Source: Chloroflexota bacterium
GTDB lineage: Bacteria > Chloroflexota > Dehalococcoidia > Lucifugimonadales > JADFKI01
Direction of reading: 5' to 3'
DNA: 64,000 nt
NCBI GenBank assembly: GCA_009840355.1
Contig: VXNZ01000014.1
Coordinates: 64,567-128,566 of the forward strand
A program made the position numbers and the translations under genes. Shown one piece after another: positions 40,306 to 54,461 of the stretch; position 1 is the stretch's first letter, and the number at the start of each line of letters is the position of its first letter. A model generated the notes under the pieces. The model saw nothing but the letters and a program-made list of their open reading frames with translations. It had not been told where the DNA came from and did no database searches.

Positions 40306-43300
40306 CTACATCGTTAGCTTCTTGTAGAGGTAGAGCAGGCGCGAGGGCAGTTCGTAGATGTCGTCAAGCACTTCGTAGCCCATGTCGGAGCACATCGTCT
40401 TTAGGTAATCGTGCCCGTTCTTGTCCACAGTGAGCGCGAAGGCGTTGATGCCCTTGTTCTTCGCCTCGTCGAGCGCCATCTTCGTGTCGTGGACGGCGTA
40501 CTCCTTCTCCACACCTTCGCGGCTGTATCCCCTGTCCTGCGGCCTGCCGTCGCTGATTAGGAACATCAGCTTTGTACGTGCGTCCTGCTTGTCCAACTTG
40601 TATGTCGTATGGCGAATCGCAGGACCCATGCGCGTGGCATGCAGAGGTGCGATGCGGTCTATGCGCCGCTTCACTCGGTCGGAGAAGTTCTCGTCCAAGT
40701 CCTTGATTGTGTAGAACTCGACATTCTCCCTGCCGTAGCCCGAGAAGCCATATATTCCGTATAGGTCACCGATTGCCTCAAGCGCGTTGATGAGCAGGAC
40801 AATTGCCTCTTTCTCGACATCGATTATGCGCTTGTACGACCGGCGCATAGCCTCACCTCTGCGGGTGCGCAACCAGACCATATACTCAACGGGGTCGTCC
40901 GGCGCGTCCCAGTCGTCCGTGTTCTTGCGCGTGTCGTCGATCGCCTCGGCGGTAGATGCGCTGGTATCCAGCAGGAATGCCACCGCTACATCGCGCTGCA
41001 CTTTGTTGCGCCGCCAGTAGAACTTATCGCTGGGGCTGGCTCCGGTCTTCATGTCCACGAAGGCTTCGATGATGTCGTCTATGTCGATCTCTTCGCCATC
41101 TTCGAGCTTGCGCACCTTGCGGAACATCTCAGGCACCATCATCTCGAATTGCCGGCGAATCTGAGTAACCAGCGTGCCGTAGTTGCCGAGTGTGTTGCCG
41201 TAGTACGACGGGTCACCCTCTTGCATCGTCTTCTGGCGCACGATGCACCAGCGCGGCTTGTAGTCGTCCGCGCGGAAGTCCCACTCGTCGTACACGAATG
41301 TTTGCGGCTCGTTTGCCTCAAGCTCGCCGCCGTCTTCGTCCACATGCACGAGTGGGCCTTGCCCGAACTCAGGCGATTGCGGGGCGTCAACGCCCGCTTC
41401 CTTCATCAGGTTGTTCGCCATCACATTGCTAGACTGCTGTATCTCACCCTGCACCGATTCGAGTTCGAGCTCGGCGCTGTTCTGAAGAAGTTCTTCCAGC
41501 ATTTCCTGTGTGATAGGCTCACCGCTTGCCTGGCCGGGTTCGTCCTGCTGCATACGCAACTGTTCCAAAAGCTGCGTGAGTTCCGGCTTGAAATCGCCTC
41601 GGAAATCCACCTCTTCTGTGGCTTCGTAGTCTTGTTCGCCGTCCGGGCGCATCTGCATTTCCATGCCCTGCGCTATCTGCTGCAGCAACGACTCCATCTC
41701 GTCCGGATCGACGTATTCCTCTTCCATTTCGTCGGTCATGTCCAGATCATCCCAGTCTTCCGGTGGCGCTTCTTCGTTGGGAATCTGCGATATGATCGCG
41801 TAGATTCGCAGCGTTGCTTCGGCAGTGTCCTCGACCTGTGCGTCTGGGTTGACAACCTGGCGCAATATTCGCCCGATTTGCTTCGCCTGCTCCTTGTACT
41901 GCTCCGGCGCGGGCAAGCCTTCGTACTGCTGTAGGCTCAGCCTGACCAAAAACTCGACCATCGCCTGACGCATCGGGAGTTCAGTGATGTTCGGGCGATG
42001 CGGTAGGGAGTCCTTTTGCACTTGAGTGTAAGTGTTCCGTATGCCGCGATACTCGTGCTTGACGCGAGCATCTAGGCGTGCCTCTTCGACGACTGTGTAG
42101 ATGTCGAGCGCCAGTTTGCGGTCATCGAACAAGTCGAAGTAGCGCTGTATGTCGGTAACCCAGGCGCGCCCGGCTTCTTCGGCGTCAGACTCCGGCAGGC
42201 TGTCGCCGCTTTCGCTGGCACCATCGTCGCCGGGATGCGCCGCAGCGAACTTTTGCCGTGCGAATTCCTCTCGCAGGTCGTCGAACATCGTGGATGGCCT
42301 GTCGAAGTCGAACCAGAAGCTGCCGAATTCAAGGCGCGCGACTTGGTGCGTGGACACTACCTTGAACCAGTTGAAGTTCTCGTGCTTGGTCATGTAGCGG
42401 TCAACGAGCCCGGGGACGAAGACCGTCGAGCCTTCCGTCGTCGGCGATTCGCTGGACACCCAGCCTATATTCTTGTCGGCAAGTTCGCCGCTTTCGGACA
42501 TCTTGATTTCCGCGCCCGCGAGACCGCGGCAGTACATCTCCATCACATCCTTGATGCGCTGGAATTCGACGCCGGACGACAGCGTTTCGAGCATCTCTTC
42601 GGAGCGCGCAGACTCTATCTTGAAGTACGCCAAGCCTCCGTCACTGTTCTGCATCAGGATGCTGACGCCCTCTGCGTACCACTTTTCGAGCTGATTCATC
42701 GTCAGCTTGTCCAACGCAACGGGGCATGCCTTCAAGAACTCCGGCACCGCATGCGCCGAGCGCGGCAGCAGCGCTTCTGCCATGCCAAGAATCTGCTCGT
42801 GGTCGTGCGTATCCACTTGCGAAAGTGCGTTGGATGTCTCCAACATTACGCTTGGGATGTTCATGCCGCCGTTCTGCACAAGCTGCTCGGCGAGTTTCAG
42901 GAAGCGCAACCGCTGCGTGCCTTCGATGCGGGGCAATGCGCGCGCGCCGGACTCAAAGAACGCCTTAATCTCGCGCCAACCGGAGTCCGTGAGCACTGTC
43001 GCCATGTTGATGAACGCCGCCTTGTCGTCACCAATCATCGGGAAGAGCTTCTGCCCAAGCGTCAGGCAGTCTGATGACAGGTCATAGGACCTGTGTGACA
43101 GCGCGTCTAGGAAATTGGCGAAGCGCTCCAACTCCGGGAAGCTAAGATCGTCTAGCAGCGCAGGGCTGGATTGGAAGAACTTGCAAGCCAGCGTGCTGGA
43201 CTTCCAAGTGCCCTTATACAGCGTGCGCCCGAGCGTCGCCCAACTTTCGATGTGGCGCGAGCGCAGCTTGCTCATCGTACCCGGGCTTGCCTCAAAGTAT

Positions 43301-43620
43301 GCGGTCGCAAGAGTGGGCGATTCCGCACAGAGTGCCTTGCCGCAGTCCGTCCATTGGAAGAAGTAGTTCAGCGGCATGTAGGCGAGCACCCTAGCGCTCA
43401 CCTTGTAGAACTCGGCGGCGGCTTCCCACGAGCGCACGGTTTCTTGCGCAATTTCAAGGCCTGCGTTCGCCCAATCGTGCCTTTGCGCGTCGGTGAGATT
43501 CGGAGGCATCTGCACCAGCGCCTTGTCGAATTCGTCGACTACGGAAGCGGGAAACTTCCCCAACTCGACTCTGATGTCATCTAGCGTTGCCGACTGATTC
43601 TTCAAGGCATTGCCTCCCAT
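40306..43620 (-). CDS. Large NorD/CbbO-like protein with a C-terminal von Willebrand factor A domain
   Basis: 1104 aa. The last 228 aa or so (about 40309..40992) form a VWA domain with a MIDAS motif (VAVAFLLDTSAS ... FLISDGRPQD). There is a central strongly acidic region (EEAPPEDWDDLDMTDEMEEEYVDPDEME...). The N-terminal 600 aa match nothing I recognise. No SD precedes ATG 43620, so the start is uncertain. Confidence 0.75.
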   Translation of the reverse strand: MGGNALKNQSATLDDIRVELGKFPASVVDEFDKALVQMPPNLTDAQRHDWANAGLEIAQETVRSWEAAAEFYKVSARVLAYMPLNYFFQWTDCGKALCAESPTLATAYFEASPGTMSKLRSRHIESWATLGRTLYKGTWKSSTLACKFFQSSPALLDDLSFPELERFANFLDALSHRSYDLSSDCLTLGQKLFPMIGDDKAAFINMATVLTDSGWREIKAFFESGARALPRIEGTQRLRFLKLAEQLVQNGGMNIPSVMLETSNALSQVDTHDHEQILGMAEALLPRSAHAVPEFLKACPVALDKLTMNQLEKWYAEGVSILMQNSDGGLAYFKIESARSEEMLETLSSGVEFQRIKDVMEMYCRGLAGAEIKMSESGELADKNIGWVSSESPTTEGSTVFVPGLVDRYMTKHENFNWFKVVSTHQVARLEFGSFWFDFDRPSTMFDDLREEFARQKFAAAHPGDDGASESGDSLPESDAEEAGRAWVTDIQRYFDLFDDRKLALDIYTVVEEARLDARVKHEYRGIRNTYTQVQKDSLPHRPNITELPMRQAMVEFLVRLSLQQYEGLPAPEQYKEQAKQIGRILRQVVNPDAQVEDTAEATLRIYAIISQIPNEEAPPEDWDDLDMTDEMEEEYVDPDEMESLLQQIAQGMEMQMRPDGEQDYEATEEVDFRGDFKPELTQLLEQLRMQQDEPGQASGEPITQEMLEELLQNSAELELESVQGEIQQSSNVMANNLMKEAGVDAPQSPEFGQGPLVHVDEDGGELEANEPQTFVYDEWDFRADDYKPRWCIVRQKTMQEGDPSYYGNTLGNYGTLVTQIRRQFEMMVPEMFRKVRKLEDGEEIDIDDIIEAFVDMKTGASPSDKFYWRRNKVQRDVAVAFLLDTSASTAEAIDDTRKNTDDWDAPDDPVEYMVWLRTRRGEAMRRSYKRIIDVEKEAIVLLINALEAIGDLYGIYGFSGYGRENVEFYTIKDLDENFSDRVKRRIDRIAPLHATRMGPAIRHTTYKLDKQDARTKLMFLISDGRPQDRGYSREGVEKEYAVHDTKMALDEAKNKGINAFALTVDKNGHDYLKTMCSDMGYEVLDDIYELPSRLLYLYKKLTM

Positions 43621-44267
43621 GTAGAGGATTGGAGCATTTCGATAAAGCGGTCTATAATGCGCGCGGTGGCGCCGAAGATTATGTGTCCATCATACGCAAA
43701 GACGGGCGCGCATAGTAAGTCGCCGTTGACCACGCGCGTCTCGCCGCGCCAGTTCTCGGAGTCCATCAGTGAGGATACAGGCACTTCCAGCACTTCCGCA
43801 ACCTCTTGTTCGCTTGGATCGAAGTCGTAGGGATACGGTATCGTGCCTGCGAACGGGTATGTCAGGTAGCCCGTCGTGGTGGCGGTATGGTCAAGCGCGC
43901 CGAAAACGCGAATATCCTGCGGGTCGATGCCCATCTCTTCGTGCGTCTCGCGGATGGCAGTGGCGAGCATAGACACGTCCTCAGGATCGCGCTTGCCGCC
44001 GGGAAACGAAATCTCGCCCTTGTGGCTGTCAACCCTGCTTGAACGCTTTTGCAATAGGATGCAATGCTCGCTATCCTTGCGAAAAACGAGCAGCATCACG
44101 CCAGCAGGCGTGAGCGCCGGGTCATCGACTTGCCTGTGCGGAGTCTCAGCGATAACCTGCTCGATGTAATCTATGAAAGTGTCGCACTGTTTGTCGCCCA
44201 TAGGGGCATCTGCGCTTTCGCTGCTACCTGTTTCTGTGCTGCGGGTTCGTGCCGGTGGCAATTTCAA
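43602..44267 (-). CDS. NUDIX hydrolase, CoA pyrophosphatase-like (NudL/Nudt7 type)
   Basis: 221 aa. Nudix box GGKRDPEDVSMLATAIRETHEEMGI preceded by the CoA-type motif ILLQKRSSRVDSHKGEISFPGG. Overlaps the downstream VWA gene by 19 nt. Confidence 0.75.
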   Translation of the reverse strand: MKLPPARTRSTETGSSESADAPMGDKQCDTFIDYIEQVIAETPHRQVDDPALTPAGVMLLVFRKDSEHCILLQKRSSRVDSHKGEISFPGGKRDPEDVSMLATAIRETHEEMGIDPQDIRVFGALDHTATTTGYLTYPFAGTIPYPYDFDPSEQEVAEVLEVPVSSLMDSENWRGETRVVNGDLLCAPVFAYDGHIIFGATARIIDRFIEMLQSSTWEAMP

Positions 44268-44315
44268 CTGCGAAGAGCCTGTGGCGAGGCACTTCTTGGG
44301 ATTCTTGCAATGAGA

Positions 44316-44783
44316 TTACTCGCTGTCGTAGGCGTCCCGCAGTGTCTGGATATCTATCTTCTGCATGCGAAGCAGCGCTTCCATGACTGCTCCTGATTTG
44401 TCCGGGTCCCCGAGCAATTCCGGCACCGCGCTGGGAACTATCTGCCAAGACACGCCGAACTTGTCGCGCAACCAGCCACACATGTCGTGCTCGCCGCCTT
44501 CGCCTAGCCGTTCCCAGAAGTGGTCCACTTCGTCTTGCGTATCGCAATTTACCACAAAGGATATCGCCGCCGAGAACTGAAACATAGGTCCGCCGTCCAA
44601 TGCCGTGAATCGCTGCCCGTCCAGCTCGAATGACACGATGCTGGCACTTTCTGCCGGACCGCCGCTGAGCTTGTGCGCGTCCACGATTCTAGCATTTTCG
44701 AAGATGGACACATAGAACTCGGCGGCTTCCATTGCGCGGCCGTCGTACCACAGGAACGGCGTTATCTTCTGAATCTGTGCCAT
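44316..44783 (-). CDS. VOC/glyoxalase-fold protein (PhnB/YjdN-like)
   Basis: 155 aa: MAQIQKITPFLWYDGRAMEAAEFYVSIF...CDTQDEVDHFWERL...CGWLRDKFGVSWQIVP, characteristic of this family. Confidence 0.75.
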   Translation of the reverse strand: MAQIQKITPFLWYDGRAMEAAEFYVSIFENARIVDAHKLSGGPAESASIVSFELDGQRFTALDGGPMFQFSAAISFVVNCDTQDEVDHFWERLGEGGEHDMCGWLRDKFGVSWQIVPSAVPELLGDPDKSGAVMEALLRMQKIDIQTLRDAYDSE

Positions 44784-44797
44784 GGCCGCACTGCGTT

Positions 44798-45709
44798 CTA
44801 CTCGAAGATTGACGCGATAATCTCTTCGATGCTCCGCTGCACTGCCTCATCGTCGGTAACCGCCCAGTTGACCGCGACTTGGCACGCGCGGCGTGGCGAA
44901 ATACCCTGTGCCATCAGCTTGCCGGCGTAGATGAGCAGCCGCGTGCTTGCGCCTTCGCCGAGACCGTGTTCGCGCAAGTTACGCACCTTCTCGCCGAGCT
45001 TTGCCAATTGCAGCGAGTCGTCCACATTAGCACCTGATTCATGCTGGATGATTTCCGCTTCGATGTCGCGCGGCGGATAATCGAACTCGATGGAGACGAA
45101 GCGCTGGCGTGTGCTGTGCTTCAGGTCCTTCAGCGCGCTCTGATAGCCGGGGTTGTACGACAAAATCAGCAGGAAGCCGTCCGCCGCCTCAAGTAGTTCA
45201 CCGCGCTTCTCGACCGGCAAAATGCGCCGGTGGTCGGTAAGGGGGTGGATGAGAACGGTAGTGTCCTTGCGCGCCTCAACAATCTCGTCAAGGTAACAGA
45301 TGCCGCCAGCTTTGACCGCGCGGGTTAGCGGCCCATCTATCCACACCGTCGAATCGCCTTCCAGCAGGTAGCGCCCCACTAGGTCGCTTGCGGTCAGGTC
45401 TTCGTGGCAGGCGATGGTTACCAGCGGAATGTTGTCGCCTTCCGGGCGTTCGACGCCGCGGCTGTCCGCCTGCTTGATGCTCGTAAGCGGCTGCCCGAGC
45501 CTATACGACATATACTCCACGAAGCGCGTCTTGCCGCATCCGGTGGGTCCTTTGAATATGAGAGGAATGCGCTGCTGATACGCCGCCTCGAACAGCTCTA
45601 CCTCGTCGCCGACCGCGACATAGTAGGGTTCTTCGGTGAGGTGATATTCCTCGATGATGTAGCTTCGGTAGAGCGTGGTCGTTGATTGCGTCATCTTGTA
45701 AGTCTGCAC
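44798..45709 (-). CDS. MoxR-class AAA+ ATPase, CbbQ/NorQ/NirQ-like
   Basis: 303 aa. Walker [11 protein letters not shown], Walker [12 protein letters not shown]. Family-typical C-terminus ([22 protein letters not shown]). Confidence 0.82.
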
Positions 45710-45712
45710 TCC

Positions 45713-46309
45713 TTAACGGGCTAGAACCCTGCTGGTCCACAAGTCTTGAATCGTTGCCGATAGTTCTTCCGGTGTCGTACTGTTTTCGATCACCACATCC
45801 GCGTGTTCCACTCGTTCAGCCTGCGGCATCTGCGAATCGATGCGGGAGCGGGCGGTGGTTTCGTCCATGTTGCGCCGCCGCAGCCGTGCGATGACATCCG
45901 CTTCCGGTGAAACCGTAACCCAGACCTCATTGACCAGCGGCGTCCAATTCGCTTCAATTAGCAATGCGGCTTCGAGCACGGCATTCGTAGTGCCCTGCTC
46001 TGCCAGCGAGTTCAGTCGCTGCTCCGCGAGCGCGTATATGCGGGGATGCATTATGGCGTTGAGCTGCTGCAGCGCATTAGGGTCGCTGAACACGATGCCG
46101 CCGAGCGCGCGCCGGTCAATCGCGCCGTCGTCAGCGACTATACCATCGCCGAATGCGTCAACAACCGCACGCCAGCCCTCGGACTGAGGCTCGTAAACCT
46201 CGTGTCCGAGCAAATCAGCGTTCACGATGGCAGCGCCCAAGTCTTCCAACAAGCGCGATACGTGCGTCTTACCGGTGCCAATTCCGCCTGTTAAACCTAT
46301 TACGAACAT
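45713..46309 (-). CDS. coaE: Dephospho-CoA kinase
   Basis: From ATG 46309 the protein starts MFVIGLTGGIGTGKTHVSRLLEDLGAAIVNAD (P-loop). Its stop lies 3 nt before the CbbQ-like start. Confidence 0.88.
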   Translation of the reverse strand: MFVIGLTGGIGTGKTHVSRLLEDLGAAIVNADLLGHEVYEPQSEGWRAVVDAFGDGIVADDGAIDRRALGGIVFSDPNALQQLNAIMHPRIYALAEQRLNSLAEQGTTNAVLEAALLIEANWTPLVNEVWVTVSPEADVIARLRRRNMDETTARSRIDSQMPQAERVEHADVVIENSTTPEELSATIQDLWTSRVLAR

Positions 46310-46518
46310 GGACCCTCTGATGTAGAGAAAATCATCACATTCTGAACATTCTAACAATCGCCCTATGGTAGGGTCAACAACGCGTAAATTTACCACTATT
46401 CAGGTGCAATAGCGAAACTGACGCAGATGGACAGGATAATTGGAATTAAACGACACACTTTGCCTGTAAGCAATGCGAGTTACCTATCGCTTATAATTGT
46501 GCGTGGGAGAATTGTAAT

Positions 46519-47889
46519 ATGACTTCAGCGTACAGATTATTACCGAGCGTGGAACGGATATTGTCGGACGAGCGCATCTCGGCGTTAGTGGATAAGCACT
46601 CGCGGCTGGCGATAACGGAAATCGTCAGGCAGCGACTCGCGGGCGCGCGCGGCGAAATCGCCGCAGGTGGCGATGCACCGCAGCTGCACGAGATTATTGC
46701 CGATGTCGCGGCGCGCGCAGAAGTGATGGCGCTACCATGGCCCCGCCATGTGATAAACGCGACGGGCGTTGTATTGCACACGAACCTTGGCCGCGCGCCG
46801 CTGAGCGACGACGCGAAGAACGCGACGCTGCGGGCAGCGCAGGGTTACAGCGACCTCGAATTGGACTTGGACACCGGACGGCGCGGCTCTCGGCAGGCGC
46901 ACATCTCGAAATTGGTCGCGCGTGTAACGGGCGCAGAGGCGGCGCTAGTCGTAAACAACAACGCTTCCGCCGTGATGCTCGGTCTCGCGGCGATTGCAAA
47001 TGGCAAGGAAGTCATCGTGTCTCGTGGCGAAGCGGTTGAGATTGGCGGCGGCTTCCGCATTCCGGATGTGTTGCGTCAGAGCGGCGCGACTCTGGTCGAA
47101 GTCGGCACGACCAATCGCACATACGCCAGCGACTACGAAGCTGCCATCACGGAACGTACGGGCGCGCTGCTGGCAGTGCACGCCAGCAATTTCCGAGTGA
47201 TGGGATTTACGCACGCGCCGGAAATCCGAGATCTTGTTGAAATCAGCGCGCGGTGCGGCGTGCCGGTGCTGCACGACCTGGGCAGCGGATGCCTGCTAGA
47301 TTCCGCGCAGTTTGGCATGATGCACGAACCCATGCCGCAGGAAAGCGTCAACGCGGGCGTAGGTCTGTCGTTCTTTTCAGGAGACAAGCTGCTAGGCGGT
47401 CCGCAAGCAGGCATAATCGCCGGCACGAACAATCTGGTCGATTTGGTTGCGCGGCATCCGTTGGCTAGGGCAATGCGTATCGACAAGCTGAGCATGGCAG
47501 CACTCGCCGCGACGATTGAACACTACCTACGCGGTGAAGCACTGGACAAGATACCAATCTGGCGGATGATTGCAATGCCACCCGATGTGGTCAAGCGGCG
47601 CGTCATGTACTGGGCGGATAATATAGGCTCGCACGCATCCGCGGCATCATCAAGATCCACGATTGGCGGTGGAAGTCTGCCGGGCGAGACGCTTCCCACA
47701 TGGGTGCTTTCGATAGACTGCGATCGTGTTGAGGGCGGCGCGGAGGCTGTTGCAAAGCACCTGCGGGACGCAGATTCCCCCGTTCTAGGGCGCATCGAAG
47801 AGGGGCGAGTTCTGCTTGATGCCCGCACTGTGCTGCCTGAGGAAGAAAACGCGCTGCTGGCAACTGTACAGACTGCATTACAAGCCTAA
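46519..47889 (+). CDS. selA: L-seryl-tRNA(Sec) selenium transferase
   Basis: 456 aa. N-terminus LLPSVERIL...; NATGVVLHTNLGRAPLS; PLP-lysine motif FSGDKLLGGPQAGII. TATAAT at 46492..46497 and GGGAGA 8 nt before the ATG. Confidence 0.92.
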   Translation: MTSAYRLLPSVERILSDERISALVDKHSRLAITEIVRQRLAGARGEIAAGGDAPQLHEIIADVAARAEVMALPWPRHVINATGVVLHTNLGRAPLSDDAKNATLRAAQGYSDLELDLDTGRRGSRQAHISKLVARVTGAEAALVVNNNASAVMLGLAAIANGKEVIVSRGEAVEIGGGFRIPDVLRQSGATLVEVGTTNRTYASDYEAAITERTGALLAVHASNFRVMGFTHAPEIRDLVEISARCGVPVLHDLGSGCLLDSAQFGMMHEPMPQESVNAGVGLSFFSGDKLLGGPQAGIIAGTNNLVDLVARHPLARAMRIDKLSMAALAATIEHYLRGEALDKIPIWRMIAMPPDVVKRRVMYWADNIGSHASAASSRSTIGGGSLPGETLPTWVLSIDCDRVEGGAEAVAKHLRDADSPVLGRIEEGRVLLDARTVLPEEENALLATVQTALQA

Positions 47890-53148: not shown

Positions 53149-53814
53149 ATGGCGGCAACTCAGCACGATTTAATGTTCCCAAGCGGAGAATTGGCGATAG
53201 AAGGCACGCTGCATCTGCCTGATGGCGAAGGGCGATTCCCCGGCGTGGTGATATGCCACCCGCACCCGCAGTACGGCGGCGATATGTACAACGTGATCGT
53301 TGCGACATTGGCGCATGCGCTTCCGGAAATCGGCATTGCCGCATTACGTTTCAACTTTCGCGGCGTGCAAATGAGCGAAGGCGCGTACGACGGCGGCTAC
53401 GGCGAGATCGAAGACGCGGTAGAAGCGATGAACTACATGGCGGTCAGCGACGGCATCGACGCCAGCCGGCTAGGTATCGCCGGATATTCGTTCGGCGCTG
53501 CGGTCGCAATCGCAGCCGCCGCGCGCAGCAATATCGCGCAGGCGCTGGTCAGCATCGCCTGCCCGTCGCGTGTGTTCAATGAGATGAGCGCACAGGAACT
53601 CCTGCTGCCCAAGCTGCTGATGCTAGGCGAGCACGACCACGATTTTCCAGCGCAGCAATTTAGGTTCATGGCGCGGCGTTTCACCGACCCGAAAGATGTC
53701 GAGGTCATACGCGGGGCGGACCACTTTTTCGGCGGGCATGTCGCAGAAGTTGTGCAGTTGACGACCGATTTCTTCGAGAATTGGCTTGTCGCAGAGCGGG
53801 GGCAGCAGCTTTGA
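53149..53814 (+). CDS. Alpha/beta hydrolase (COG2945-like)
   Basis: 221 aa. CHPHPQYGGDMYNVIV and nucleophile elbow GYSFGA. Confidence 0.7.
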   Translation: MAATQHDLMFPSGELAIEGTLHLPDGEGRFPGVVICHPHPQYGGDMYNVIVATLAHALPEIGIAALRFNFRGVQMSEGAYDGGYGEIEDAVEAMNYMAVSDGIDASRLGIAGYSFGAAVAIAAAARSNIAQALVSIACPSRVFNEMSAQELLLPKLLMLGEHDHDFPAQQFRFMARRFTDPKDVEVIRGADHFFGGHVAEVVQLTTDFFENWLVAERGQQL

Positions 53815-54461
53815 TGCGGCAGACCGCCATCTCCTTCAGCAGCAAGCGTGTAACGCTAGAAGGCGTGCTCGCAATTCCCAAAGAGTTGCCGCAGCCGTAC
53901 CCGGCAATAGTGATGTGCCACCCGCACCCGTTGCTTGGCGGCAATATGGACAGTCCTGTGGTTGCCAGCGTCTGCCGCGCGGCGAGCGAAGCGGGATTCG
54001 CCAGCTTCCGATTCAACTTTCGTGGCGTTGAAGGCAGTGAAGGAGACTTCGAGAACGGCGATTCTACTCACGAGGACATCAAGGCAGCGTTGAATATCAT
54101 ACGCCGCTGGCGGGGCGTTGACCGTAAACGAATGGCGCTCTGCGGCTACTCATTCGGCGCAGGCGCGATACTGCGCGGGTTGCGGCACTTCAAGTCGGCT
54201 CACGCACTCGCACTCATCGCGCCACCACTGTCCACCGTTGAAGAATCGCGCATCGTAAAGGACAAGCGCCCGAAGTTGTTCGTCGTGGGCGAGCACGACC
54301 GTCTGGTATCATCCGTAAGATTGCAGCGCGCGTTGGACGGCGTTCGCGAGCCTGTGCAATTCCGCGAGGTTGAAGGCGGCGACCACAGCCTAGCCGGACG
54401 CGAATGGGAAGTTGCTGACGAAGTGGTGGCGTTCGTCTCACAAGTATTTGGCGTTGACTGA
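53814..54461 (+). CDS. Alpha/beta hydrolase (tandem paralogue)
   Basis: From ATG 53814, which overlaps the upstream stop (TGATG). CHPHPLLGGNMDSPVV and GYSFGA. Confidence 0.7.
   Translation: MRQTAISFSSKRVTLEGVLAIPKELPQPYPAIVMCHPHPLLGGNMDSPVVASVCRAASEAGFASFRFNFRGVEGSEGDFENGDSTHEDIKAALNIIRRWRGVDRKRMALCGYSFGAGAILRGLRHFKSAHALALIAPPLSTVEESRIVKDKRPKLFVVGEHDRLVSSVRLQRALDGVREPVQFREVEGGDHSLAGREWEVADEVVAFVSQVFGVD

Follow-up and report, generated by a model that had tools for sequence, protein, structure and literature searches.

A coaE-linked operon of Dehalococcoidia probably encodes a CbbQO/NorQD-type remodelling chaperone of a third clade

We analysed a window of 64,000 nucleotides from a Chloroflexota bacterium of the class Dehalococcoidia (assembly GCA_009840355.1, contig VXNZ01000014.1, positions 64,567 to 128,566; all coordinates below are those of the window). 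An initial annotation, made from the letters of the window alone, had drawn attention to two genes with no visible client: a MoxR-class AAA+ ATPase of the CbbQ/NorQ type (Q in the following) and a very long protein with a C-terminal VWA domain (the adaptor). All open reading frames (ORFs) named there are present at their coordinates on the minus strand, in the order coaE, Q, VOC gene, NUDIX gene and VWA gene. The first gene, coaE (45713..46396), encodes dephospho-CoA kinase (CoA, coenzyme A; Pfam CoaE, E = 9e-48) and passes the NCBIfam equivalog TIGR00152 with 161 bits at a cut-off of 65.6. It is followed by the gene for Q (44798..45709, 303 amino acids (aa)), a VOC/PhnB-like gene (PF06983, E = 1.6e-40; 44316..44783), a gene for a CoA-pyrophosphatase-like NUDIX hydrolase (43602..44267) and the gene for the CbbO-like adaptor (40306..43620, 1104 aa). 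The genes are tightly packed, with gaps of 3 nt between coaE and Q, 14 nt between Q and the VOC gene and 48 nt between the VOC and NUDIX genes, while the stop of the NUDIX gene overlaps the start of the VWA gene by 19 nt. The arrangement that had been described, two partners separated by a VOC and a NUDIX gene but tightly packed on one strand, is thus correct.

For two of the genes, the longest ORF probably starts too far upstream: the true start of coaE is probably M30 at 46309 rather than the GTG start, and the true start of the NUDIX gene probably M23 at 44201 rather than the TTG start. Both are preferred because the lengths of the homologues (199-203 aa for CoaE) and the starts of the domains point there. 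Just upstream of the probable coaE start lies a sigma-70-like promoter candidate (46348..46377, minus strand; TTGACC, 18-nt spacer, TG-TAGAAT) that matches the consensus at 10 of 12 positions and is the sole such site between 39900 and 46800; its position would be consistent with one transcription unit for the operon. The NUDIX protein has its best NCBIfam match to CoA pyrophosphatase (E = 2e-30, below the cut-off), and 46 of 54 orthologues retain the CoA-type motif LLnKRSxxVehHKGEIsFPGG.

The ATPase matches the Pfam families AAA_5 (E = 4e-29) and CbbQ_C (E = 4e-27), both above the cut-offs, which places it in the CbbQ/GvpN/NorQ subfamily. Among the structures of the PDB it matches CbbQ of Halothiobacillus (5c3c, E = 2e-101), the CbbQ of Acidithiobacillus CbbQ2O2 (6l1q, E = 2e-94) and NorQ (9qhd, E = 2.5e-91; 9qhd and 9qh4, about 1e-91); the match to midasin is far weaker. 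Identity is 53-58% to CbbQ and NorQ (54-58% and 53-57%, respectively) and 26% to GvpN. Walker A, Walker B and the H2-insert motif GRYLLxxxxT are all intact, and they are kept in 80, 66 and 79 of the 82 Q proteins of the family, respectively. In NorQ, the H2-insert motif (GRxLL/IxxxxT) touches the finger of the adaptor (PMC13036017). The window Q also has both cysteines of the inhibitory disulphide of NorQ (in GPTGCGKT and ACHED); of the 82 proteins, 57 retain the Walker-A cysteine and 77 the ACH/N motif.

One feature sets these ATPases apart: an insertion between the Walker-A helix and the next strand, visible in the alignment at aa 76-92 of the window Q (45434..45484, minus strand). It is 10-26 aa long, variable in sequence and present in every sampled Q that is paired with a long VWA gene. 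CbbQ, NorQ and GvpN have no counterpart, and neither has the Q of Miltoncostaea oceani (Actinomycetota), which is encoded on a plasmid next to a split adaptor (see below). The Q of a further locus, L088, where the adaptor is probably split, carries the insertion too.

A neighbour-joining tree with bootstraps was constructed from Q sequences, with references for CbbQ, NorQ and GvpN that came from alignments of PDB entries and from plasmid loci with annotation: Cereibacter cbbLS-cbbQ-cbbO (L090), Agrobacterium norCB-norQ-norD, Octadecabacter gvpN and an amidase-linked pair of Roseibium. The window Q groups with the other Q proteins whose genes stand beside long VWA genes. The Dehalococcoidia have a bootstrap support of 100; the value is 75 when metagenome sequences (putatively gammaproteobacterial) are included and 85 when the Miltoncostaea Q is included as well. 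The window Q falls outside the CbbQ clade and the NorQ clade (100% each); its own clade is sister to CbbQ with 73%. It is therefore of the CbbQ/NorQ type, as had been proposed, and the phylogenetic placement that had been suggested as a check leaves it within the CbbQ/GvpN/NorQ subfamily, where it forms part of a third clade that is neither CbbQ nor NorQ.

In the adaptor, Pfam recognises the VWA domain only (aa 937-1081). The same is true for bona fide CbbO and NorD, and an unrecognised N-terminus is thus normal for this family of adaptors. The protein had been described as much longer than CbbO and NorD, and it is: 1104 aa compared with 744 aa for bona fide CbbO, 632 aa for NorD and 638-646 aa for the solved NorD chains. 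By profile comparison (hhalign), aa 275-1104 align with residues 113-743 of Cereibacter CbbO (probability 100, E = 6e-60), from the N-domain through the linker to the VWA domain with its MIDAS, an adhesion site dependent on metal ions, and within this alignment aa 275-440 correspond to the N-domain of CbbO (residues 113-270). With real NorD the alignment is limited to aa 774-1104, and the N-terminal 770 aa are unrelated to NorD; in a phmmer search of the PDB the adaptor matches NorD only (E = 4e-35; aa 775-895 and 930-1102). Judged by these alignments, which reach back to the N-domain for CbbO and cover only the C-terminus for NorD, the 1104-aa adaptor is a long relative of CbbO. The earlier view of the N-terminus as unrecognised thus holds for Pfam and does not hold for aa 275-440.

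The architecture of the adaptor can be followed along its length in the family alignments (A1 and A2) and in two AlphaFold models, the second with a mean predicted local distance difference test (pLDDT) of 84. A predicted alpha-solenoid (aa 11-335; 42616..43590, minus strand, like all adaptor features; pLDDT about 90) consists of helical repeats of about 37 aa with the pattern W..G..LA...S..A..FF..SP.LL, seen in the family consensus of alignment A1; the aligned part of CbbO contains nothing that corresponds to the first ~270 aa. The core of the CbbO-homologous N-domain (aa 275-440; 42301..42798) contains the motifs AYF.LES and HQxxxxEFG, with N415, H425 and E431 invariant or nearly so, and the model has a mixed alpha/beta region at aa 336-460 that bears both motifs. 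It is followed by an extra helical middle domain (aa 490-630; 41731..42153; pLDDT 85-92), in which E512, R515, Y524 and G526 are invariant in both alignments; this motif is not kept in CbbO. Foldseek searches of the PDB with aa 1-640 yielded nothing beyond designed helical repeats, TALE and mTERF, all at E >= 0.05, with no functional lead, and did not retrieve the NorD chains that contain an N-domain. HMM and structure searches with the N-terminal part had both been proposed; the former found the N-domain of CbbO and the latter nothing informative.

The very acidic central tract that had been noticed is a predicted disordered linker (aa 616-775; 41296..41775) with 29% D/E, 3% K/R, a net charge of -41 and pLDDT values below 50 over most of aa 631-771. 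By position it matches the linker of NorD, which is essential in NorD (PMC13036017). Residues 403-448 of PdNorD form the finger (PMC13036017) and align with aa ~828-877 of the adaptor (40990..41139), a stretch conserved across the family, which we infer to be the finger predicted to enter the pore of Q. The VWA domain (40309..40992) is assigned from its sequence, Pfam and Foldseek, the latter with a TM score of about 0.74 to VWA chains of NorD. Its MIDAS is complete, in line with the initial annotation: LLDTSAST and ISDGRPQD are present, and D885, S887, S889, T996 and D1024 are invariant or nearly so. Of 48 adaptors, 44-48 retain the MIDAS and a YDEWD motif, and the C-terminus (...LY..LT) is essentially invariant. 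Right after the MIDAS DxSxS strand the adaptor has a 34-aa insertion (aa 896-929; 40834-40935) that is absent from NorD and CbbO and variable in the family (44% gaps).

A first homologue search returned 772 proteins at E <= 1e-5; the best 120 of these are 70-98% identical to the adaptor and nearly all about 1090-1110 aa long, and the few source names among them are SAR202 or Chloroflexi. With HMMER, 1.84 billion cluster representatives were searched exhaustively; 4138 are related to the adaptor at E <= 1e-3, of which 1418 reach E < 1e-30, and many of the best 150 are about 950-1170 aa long, with 25-53% identity. Conservation extends over the full length with the exception of two variable acidic stretches. 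The best 80 loci from the species genomes of GTDB belong without exception to Chloroflexota, are nearly all labelled Dehalococcoidia and include the cultured Tepidiforma flava. Exact-sequence look-ups found no record for the adaptor or for its 98% identical relative P0001, and relatives with 70-90% identity were used instead; a search for distant members with the profile of alignment A2 returned only 13 proteins, as the word prefilter was saturated. The clade looks widespread across Dehalococcoidia, including oceanic SAR202 and Tepidiforma.

Natural variants of the adaptor exist. On the plasmid of Miltoncostaea oceani (NZ_CP064358; L084, 7150-10860) it is split into a 362-aa 'hypothetical protein' with the N-domain and a 548-aa VWA protein, and the break lies exactly at the first acidic stretch; at L088 it is probably split into 192 and 821 aa. 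The Miltoncostaea split shows that the adaptor is modular; its usual form, however, is the continuous one. An assembly or frameshift fusion of two genes, which had been named as a possible pitfall and for which these split forms might speak, can be dismissed almost with certainty: independent assemblies, complete chromosomes among them, encode an uninterrupted protein of about 1090 aa that is conserved along its whole length. A distant member of 1031 aa (P0278; L086, 2256-5351) has a faint CobT_C match; no Q gene is found anywhere on its 15-kb contig, and the Q/VWA pair is therefore not always adjacent. In the automated annotation of JGI, members of the clade are labelled 'nitric oxide reductase NorD/NorQ protein', and no nor genes are nearby. 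Literature searches for CbbQ or NorQ together with SAR202, Chloroflexi or dephospho-CoA kinase returned nothing relevant, and we found no paper on this clade.

Gene neighbourhoods, a comparison that had been proposed, were counted by tblastn across 83 Dehalococcoidia loci. In 76 loci Q is on the strand of the VWA gene and no more than 3 kb upstream of it; in 72, coaE immediately precedes Q on that strand; and 55 have a NUDIX gene between Q and the VWA gene; coaE and the CoA-type NUDIX gene are conserved operon partners. The VOC gene is found in only the four closest related loci and is a recent lineage-specific insert outside the operon core. In Tepidiforma and 10 related loci a gene for a calcineurin-like metallophosphoesterase takes the NUDIX slot between Q and the VWA gene; different phosphohydrolases thus occupy the same position of the operon. 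In Tepidiforma flava (L068), the metallophosphoesterase gene in this slot is at 9265-9876, and a histidine phosphatase gene (13207-13827) follows the VWA gene. In other lineages Q abuts the VWA gene directly. When all neighbouring ORFs of the 83 loci were clustered without preselection, CinA, a GldG-like ABC exporter, SelA and RarA recurred, mostly on the opposite strand, which looks like inherited synteny; the clustering revealed no further same-strand partner and no candidate client enzyme. The order coaE-Q-(NUDIX or metallophosphoesterase)-VWA gene is thus conserved, in about 75 of the 83 loci, with no recurring client gene. SelA (selenocysteine synthase; 46519-47889, plus strand) is divergent from the operon and syntenic in many relatives, which implies selenocysteine use in the lineage of the window.

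We searched the window itself for a client. Most predicted genes at 1-30 kb and 53-64 kb were scanned with Pfam, and two ABC permeases and two short-chain dehydrogenases were recognised by eye; the content of 30-54 kb was judged by synteny with an annotated relative (L001) and comprises polyamine genes, an ABC exporter, CinA, SelA, RarA and MFS transporters. The scanned genes encode an integrase, UvrC, SPFH/NfeD, glycerate kinase, LutABC, a nuclease-ankyrin protein, gamma-glutamyltranspeptidase, the binding protein of an ABC peptide transporter, dehydrogenases, a luciferase-like oxidoreductase, hydrolases, fumarase, a CCA-adding-type enzyme, an aldolase, a GMC oxidoreductase, a TPR protein, an MFS transporter and a PNPOx-like protein. 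Searches by tblastn with bona fide CbbL, CbbS, NorB, NorC and aliphatic amidase found no match in the window and, in the 97 loci fetched for comparison (1.9 Mb), none except the reference loci themselves. The window thus contains no gene for Rubisco, nitric oxide (NO) reductase or haem-copper oxidase, as had been stated before. Most likely, the client is not encoded beside the pair and its gene lies elsewhere.

Two entries of this inventory deserve mention in their own right. A complete lactate-utilisation cluster of the LutABC type (9085-12402, minus strand), with a LUD domain protein, a 4Fe-4S LutB and a CCG-domain LutA, adjoins the glycerate kinase gene. At 12572-14011 (minus strand), a 479-aa protein combines a staphylococcal-nuclease domain with a long array of ankyrin repeats; its gene sits in the stretch with the lowest GC content of the window (0.518 vs about 0.58) and looks like a horizontally acquired gene for a eukaryote-like repeat protein.

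Outside Dehalococcoidia, the Q/VWA pair is found on metagenome contigs that are probably gammaproteobacterial: the Q proteins nearest to that of L085 carry names of metagenome-assembled genomes from Gammaproteobacteria or Pseudomonadales. At L085, L088 and L097 the gene order is small hydrolase, enoyl-CoA hydratase (crotonase), Q and VWA gene; at L089, L095 and L096 it is small hydrolase, Q, VWA gene, a second hydrolase and PdxA. The enoyl-CoA hydratase gene, which in these metagenome lineages is preceded by that of a thioesterase-like hydrolase, is next to Q on the same strand with a gap of 3 nt at L085, an overlap of 4 nt at L088 and a distance of about 210 nt at L097. Genes for MeaB and a B12-binding protein are near L085, and genes for a thiolase, a DUF35 protein and an acyl-CoA synthetase are on the Miltoncostaea plasmid. 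In the window, two alpha/beta hydrolase genes lie in tandem (53149-53814 and 53781-54461, plus strand); their products, each about 220 aa long, contain the motif CHPHPxxGGxM and are possible though unproven associates of the operon. They are 32-46% identical to the hydrolases of about 200 aa directly upstream of Q in the metagenome lineages and syntenic in nine SAR202 relatives; at a rearranged locus (L010), homologues are still found 1.4 kb downstream of the VWA gene. The nearest solved hydrolases (3trd, 2fuk and 2i3d) are deposited as 'alpha/beta hydrolase', 'XC6422 protein' and 'hypothetical protein'.

These data support the original interpretation of the pair as an ATPase of the CbbQ/NorQ class with a VWA adaptor of the NorD/CbbO class. 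We propose, with a probability of roughly 65%, that the operon encodes an ATP-driven remodelling chaperone of the CbbQO/NorQD type that belongs to a third, uncharacterised clade. It is very likely that Q and the adaptor would form a working remodelling machine with a finger-in-pore mechanism, because all elements required according to the NorQD structures (active ATPase, H2 insert, finger, MIDAS, linker and C-terminus) are present and under purifying selection. That the clade is a distinct one whose client is something other than Rubisco or cNOR is also probable, to a lesser degree: the pair is not a CbbQO or NorQD in the strict sense, because clade, architecture and context disagree with both.

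Two studies of NorQD (PMC13036017, PMC9976466) and the structures of NorQD and CbbQO served as template for a mechanism. By homology, Q would form a hexameric ring that is plugged by one copy of the adaptor; the finger of the VWA domain would contact the H2-insert motif, and the conserved C-terminus would also bind the ring. The MIDAS site would hold an acidic residue on the client protein, and the N-terminal solenoid together with the CbbO-like N-domain may dock either on the client or on the ring. ATP-driven rotation would then stretch the long acidic linker and pry the client open, either to release a tight inhibitor or to admit a cofactor.

Known systems of related design help to delimit the proposal. 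From CbbQO the operon differs in its partners, coaE and a NUDIX gene in place of a nearby Rubisco gene, and in the features of Q and adaptor described above. In Roseibium algicola (L091, 4738-9048), a plasmid carries a urea ABC transporter, an aliphatic amidase and then a Q of the CbbQ clade with a 746-aa VWA protein, hence a CbbQ-type pair beside an enzyme other than Rubisco; this suggests that Q/VWA modules can serve other clients. Unlike the window pair, its Q groups with true CbbQ (99%), the adaptor has the length of CbbO and the presumed client is adjacent. In BchI-BchD and CobS-CobT, an AAA+ ring likewise works with a partner equipped with an acidic linker and, at its C-terminus, a VWA domain with MIDAS. 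However, the window Q reaches only 16.9 bits for Pfam Mg_chelatase (cut-off 20.3), and the adaptor has no AAA-like or CobT N-domain in Pfam or NCBIfam; on these two grounds chelatase membership was ruled out. No substrate subunit of the CobN/BchH type was seen in the annotated loci. RavA-ViaA and other MoxR-VWA pairs are similar in that a MoxR ATPase and a VWA adaptor act on a separately encoded client (PMC10585395), but they belong to another MoxR subfamily and the adaptor architectures are unrelated.

Would an ordinary CbbQO or NorQD, with its client genes elsewhere in the genome, explain the locus equally well? Q is 53-58% identical to both references, the adaptor combines the N-domain of CbbO with a VWA domain, finger and C-terminus like those of NorD, and the automated names point the same way. 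Moreover, within the Chloroflexi supergroup, norBC has been reported in one preprint from Dehalococcoidia only, and form I rbcL from every clade analysed there (10.1101/2021.08.23.457424). Against this stand the position of Q outside both reference clades and an adaptor that lacks the N-domain of NorD and exceeds CbbO by ~270 N-terminal residues and a middle domain. In addition, at the reference loci the client gene is directly next to the pair, and here none is found within 10 kb in about 90 loci, while the pair seems to be broadly distributed among Dehalococcoidia lineages, with a consistent link to coaE. We consider this explanation unlikely. MoxR-VWA pairs also mature CO dehydrogenase (CoxD/CoxE) and methanol dehydrogenase. 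NorQD inserts FeB into cNOR (PMC9976466, PMC13036017). The operon could encode a factor that inserts a metal or cofactor into a respiratory or molybdenum enzyme encoded elsewhere, for instance a haem-copper oxidase or an enzyme of the CoxL/xanthine-dehydrogenase family. The host lineages are described as retaining genes of aerobic metabolism, and in L002 and L094 a large subunit of the MoCoBD family is encoded 3-4 kb downstream. With two of roughly 90 loci this linkage is, however, inconsistent; the N-domain of the adaptor resembles that of CbbO, which has a soluble client in CbbQO, rather than that of NorD, and reading the adaptor sequence by eye reveals no obvious membrane-binding features. 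Such an insertion factor is a possibility that we rate as rather doubtful.

The small CHPHPxxGGxM hydrolase may itself be the client or an obligate partner, as in two separate metagenome lineages its gene immediately precedes Q, or the enoyl-CoA hydratase and Q, on the same strand, and the tandem homologues of the window are only 7.5 kb from the operon. But most Dehalococcoidia loci have no copy within 10 kb, the 18.5 kb fetched from the Miltoncostaea plasmid contain none either, and alpha/beta hydrolases are common; we regard this as improbable. MoxR-VWA modules also occur in predicted conflict systems. For this operon an anti-phage or conflict function is extremely unlikely given its stable chromosomal place beside the housekeeping gene coaE across a bacterial class, the lack of an effector-type domain and the lack of flanking mobile-element genes in the window. 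The only PADLOC matches were two trivial ones at the level of sub-domains, in the P-loop and NUDIX regions (E = 4e-4 and 4e-5), and a defence system was rejected on this result.

Within the proposal of a third-clade remodelling chaperone, the nature of the client is the most tentative part. The phosphatase CbbY works alongside Rubisco activase, and likening the NUDIX protein and Q/VWA to CbbY and Rubisco activase suggests a similar logic of an activase plus a ligand hydrolase. CoA and acyl-CoA metabolism is the only theme that recurs in three independent contexts (coaE with a CoA-type NUDIX gene; crotonase with a thioesterase-like hydrolase; the thiolase, DUF35 and acyl-CoA synthetase genes of Miltoncostaea, with MeaB near L085), and it thus weakly suggests that the client may be a soluble enzyme of this metabolism. 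If so, the co-transcribed CoA-type NUDIX hydrolase would destroy a nucleotide-like ligand released from the client, and the metallophosphoesterase would take its role in Tepidiforma. In a still more speculative and improbable version, the operon would be a two-part repair system in which Q/VWA ejects a damaged or dead-end ligand of the CoA type, the NUDIX hydrolase destroys it and CoaE helps to rebuild the CoA pool.

Several observations weigh against the proposal or its parts. A gene for Rubisco, norBC or an oxidase may lie elsewhere in the genome. The finger is assigned by alignment only, in a region where the confidence of the model is low. coaE is a housekeeping gene, and its linkage to the pair may be inherited synteny and nothing else; acyl-CoA genes are frequent in the fetched loci and their adjacency is likely due to chance. 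For these last two reasons a CoA-linked client is kept as a doubtful suggestion. The NUDIX gene, finally, is lacking in about a third of the Dehalococcoidia loci and in the other lineages.

Orphan MoxR-VWA pairs are common. To our knowledge, only few clients of MoxR ATPases are established, among them Rubisco, cNOR and fumarate reductase, and finding these clients is a standing problem. The present analysis defines a third conserved clade of the CbbQ/NorQ group, characterised by a distinctive long adaptor, a signature insertion in Q, a stable coaE-linked operon and a Dehalococcoidia-wide spread that includes SAR202. The labels 'NorQ' and 'NorD' may lead metagenome surveys to over-count markers of denitrification; these genes give no evidence for NO reduction. 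The conserved partners of the operon, coaE and the CoA-type NUDIX gene, and the recurring small hydrolase provide concrete candidates for tests, and Tepidiforma offers a culturable host. If the idea of a repair system were true, it would be the first pair of an activase and an inhibitor hydrolase outside Rubisco, in a group of deep-ocean bacteria that ranks among the most abundant.

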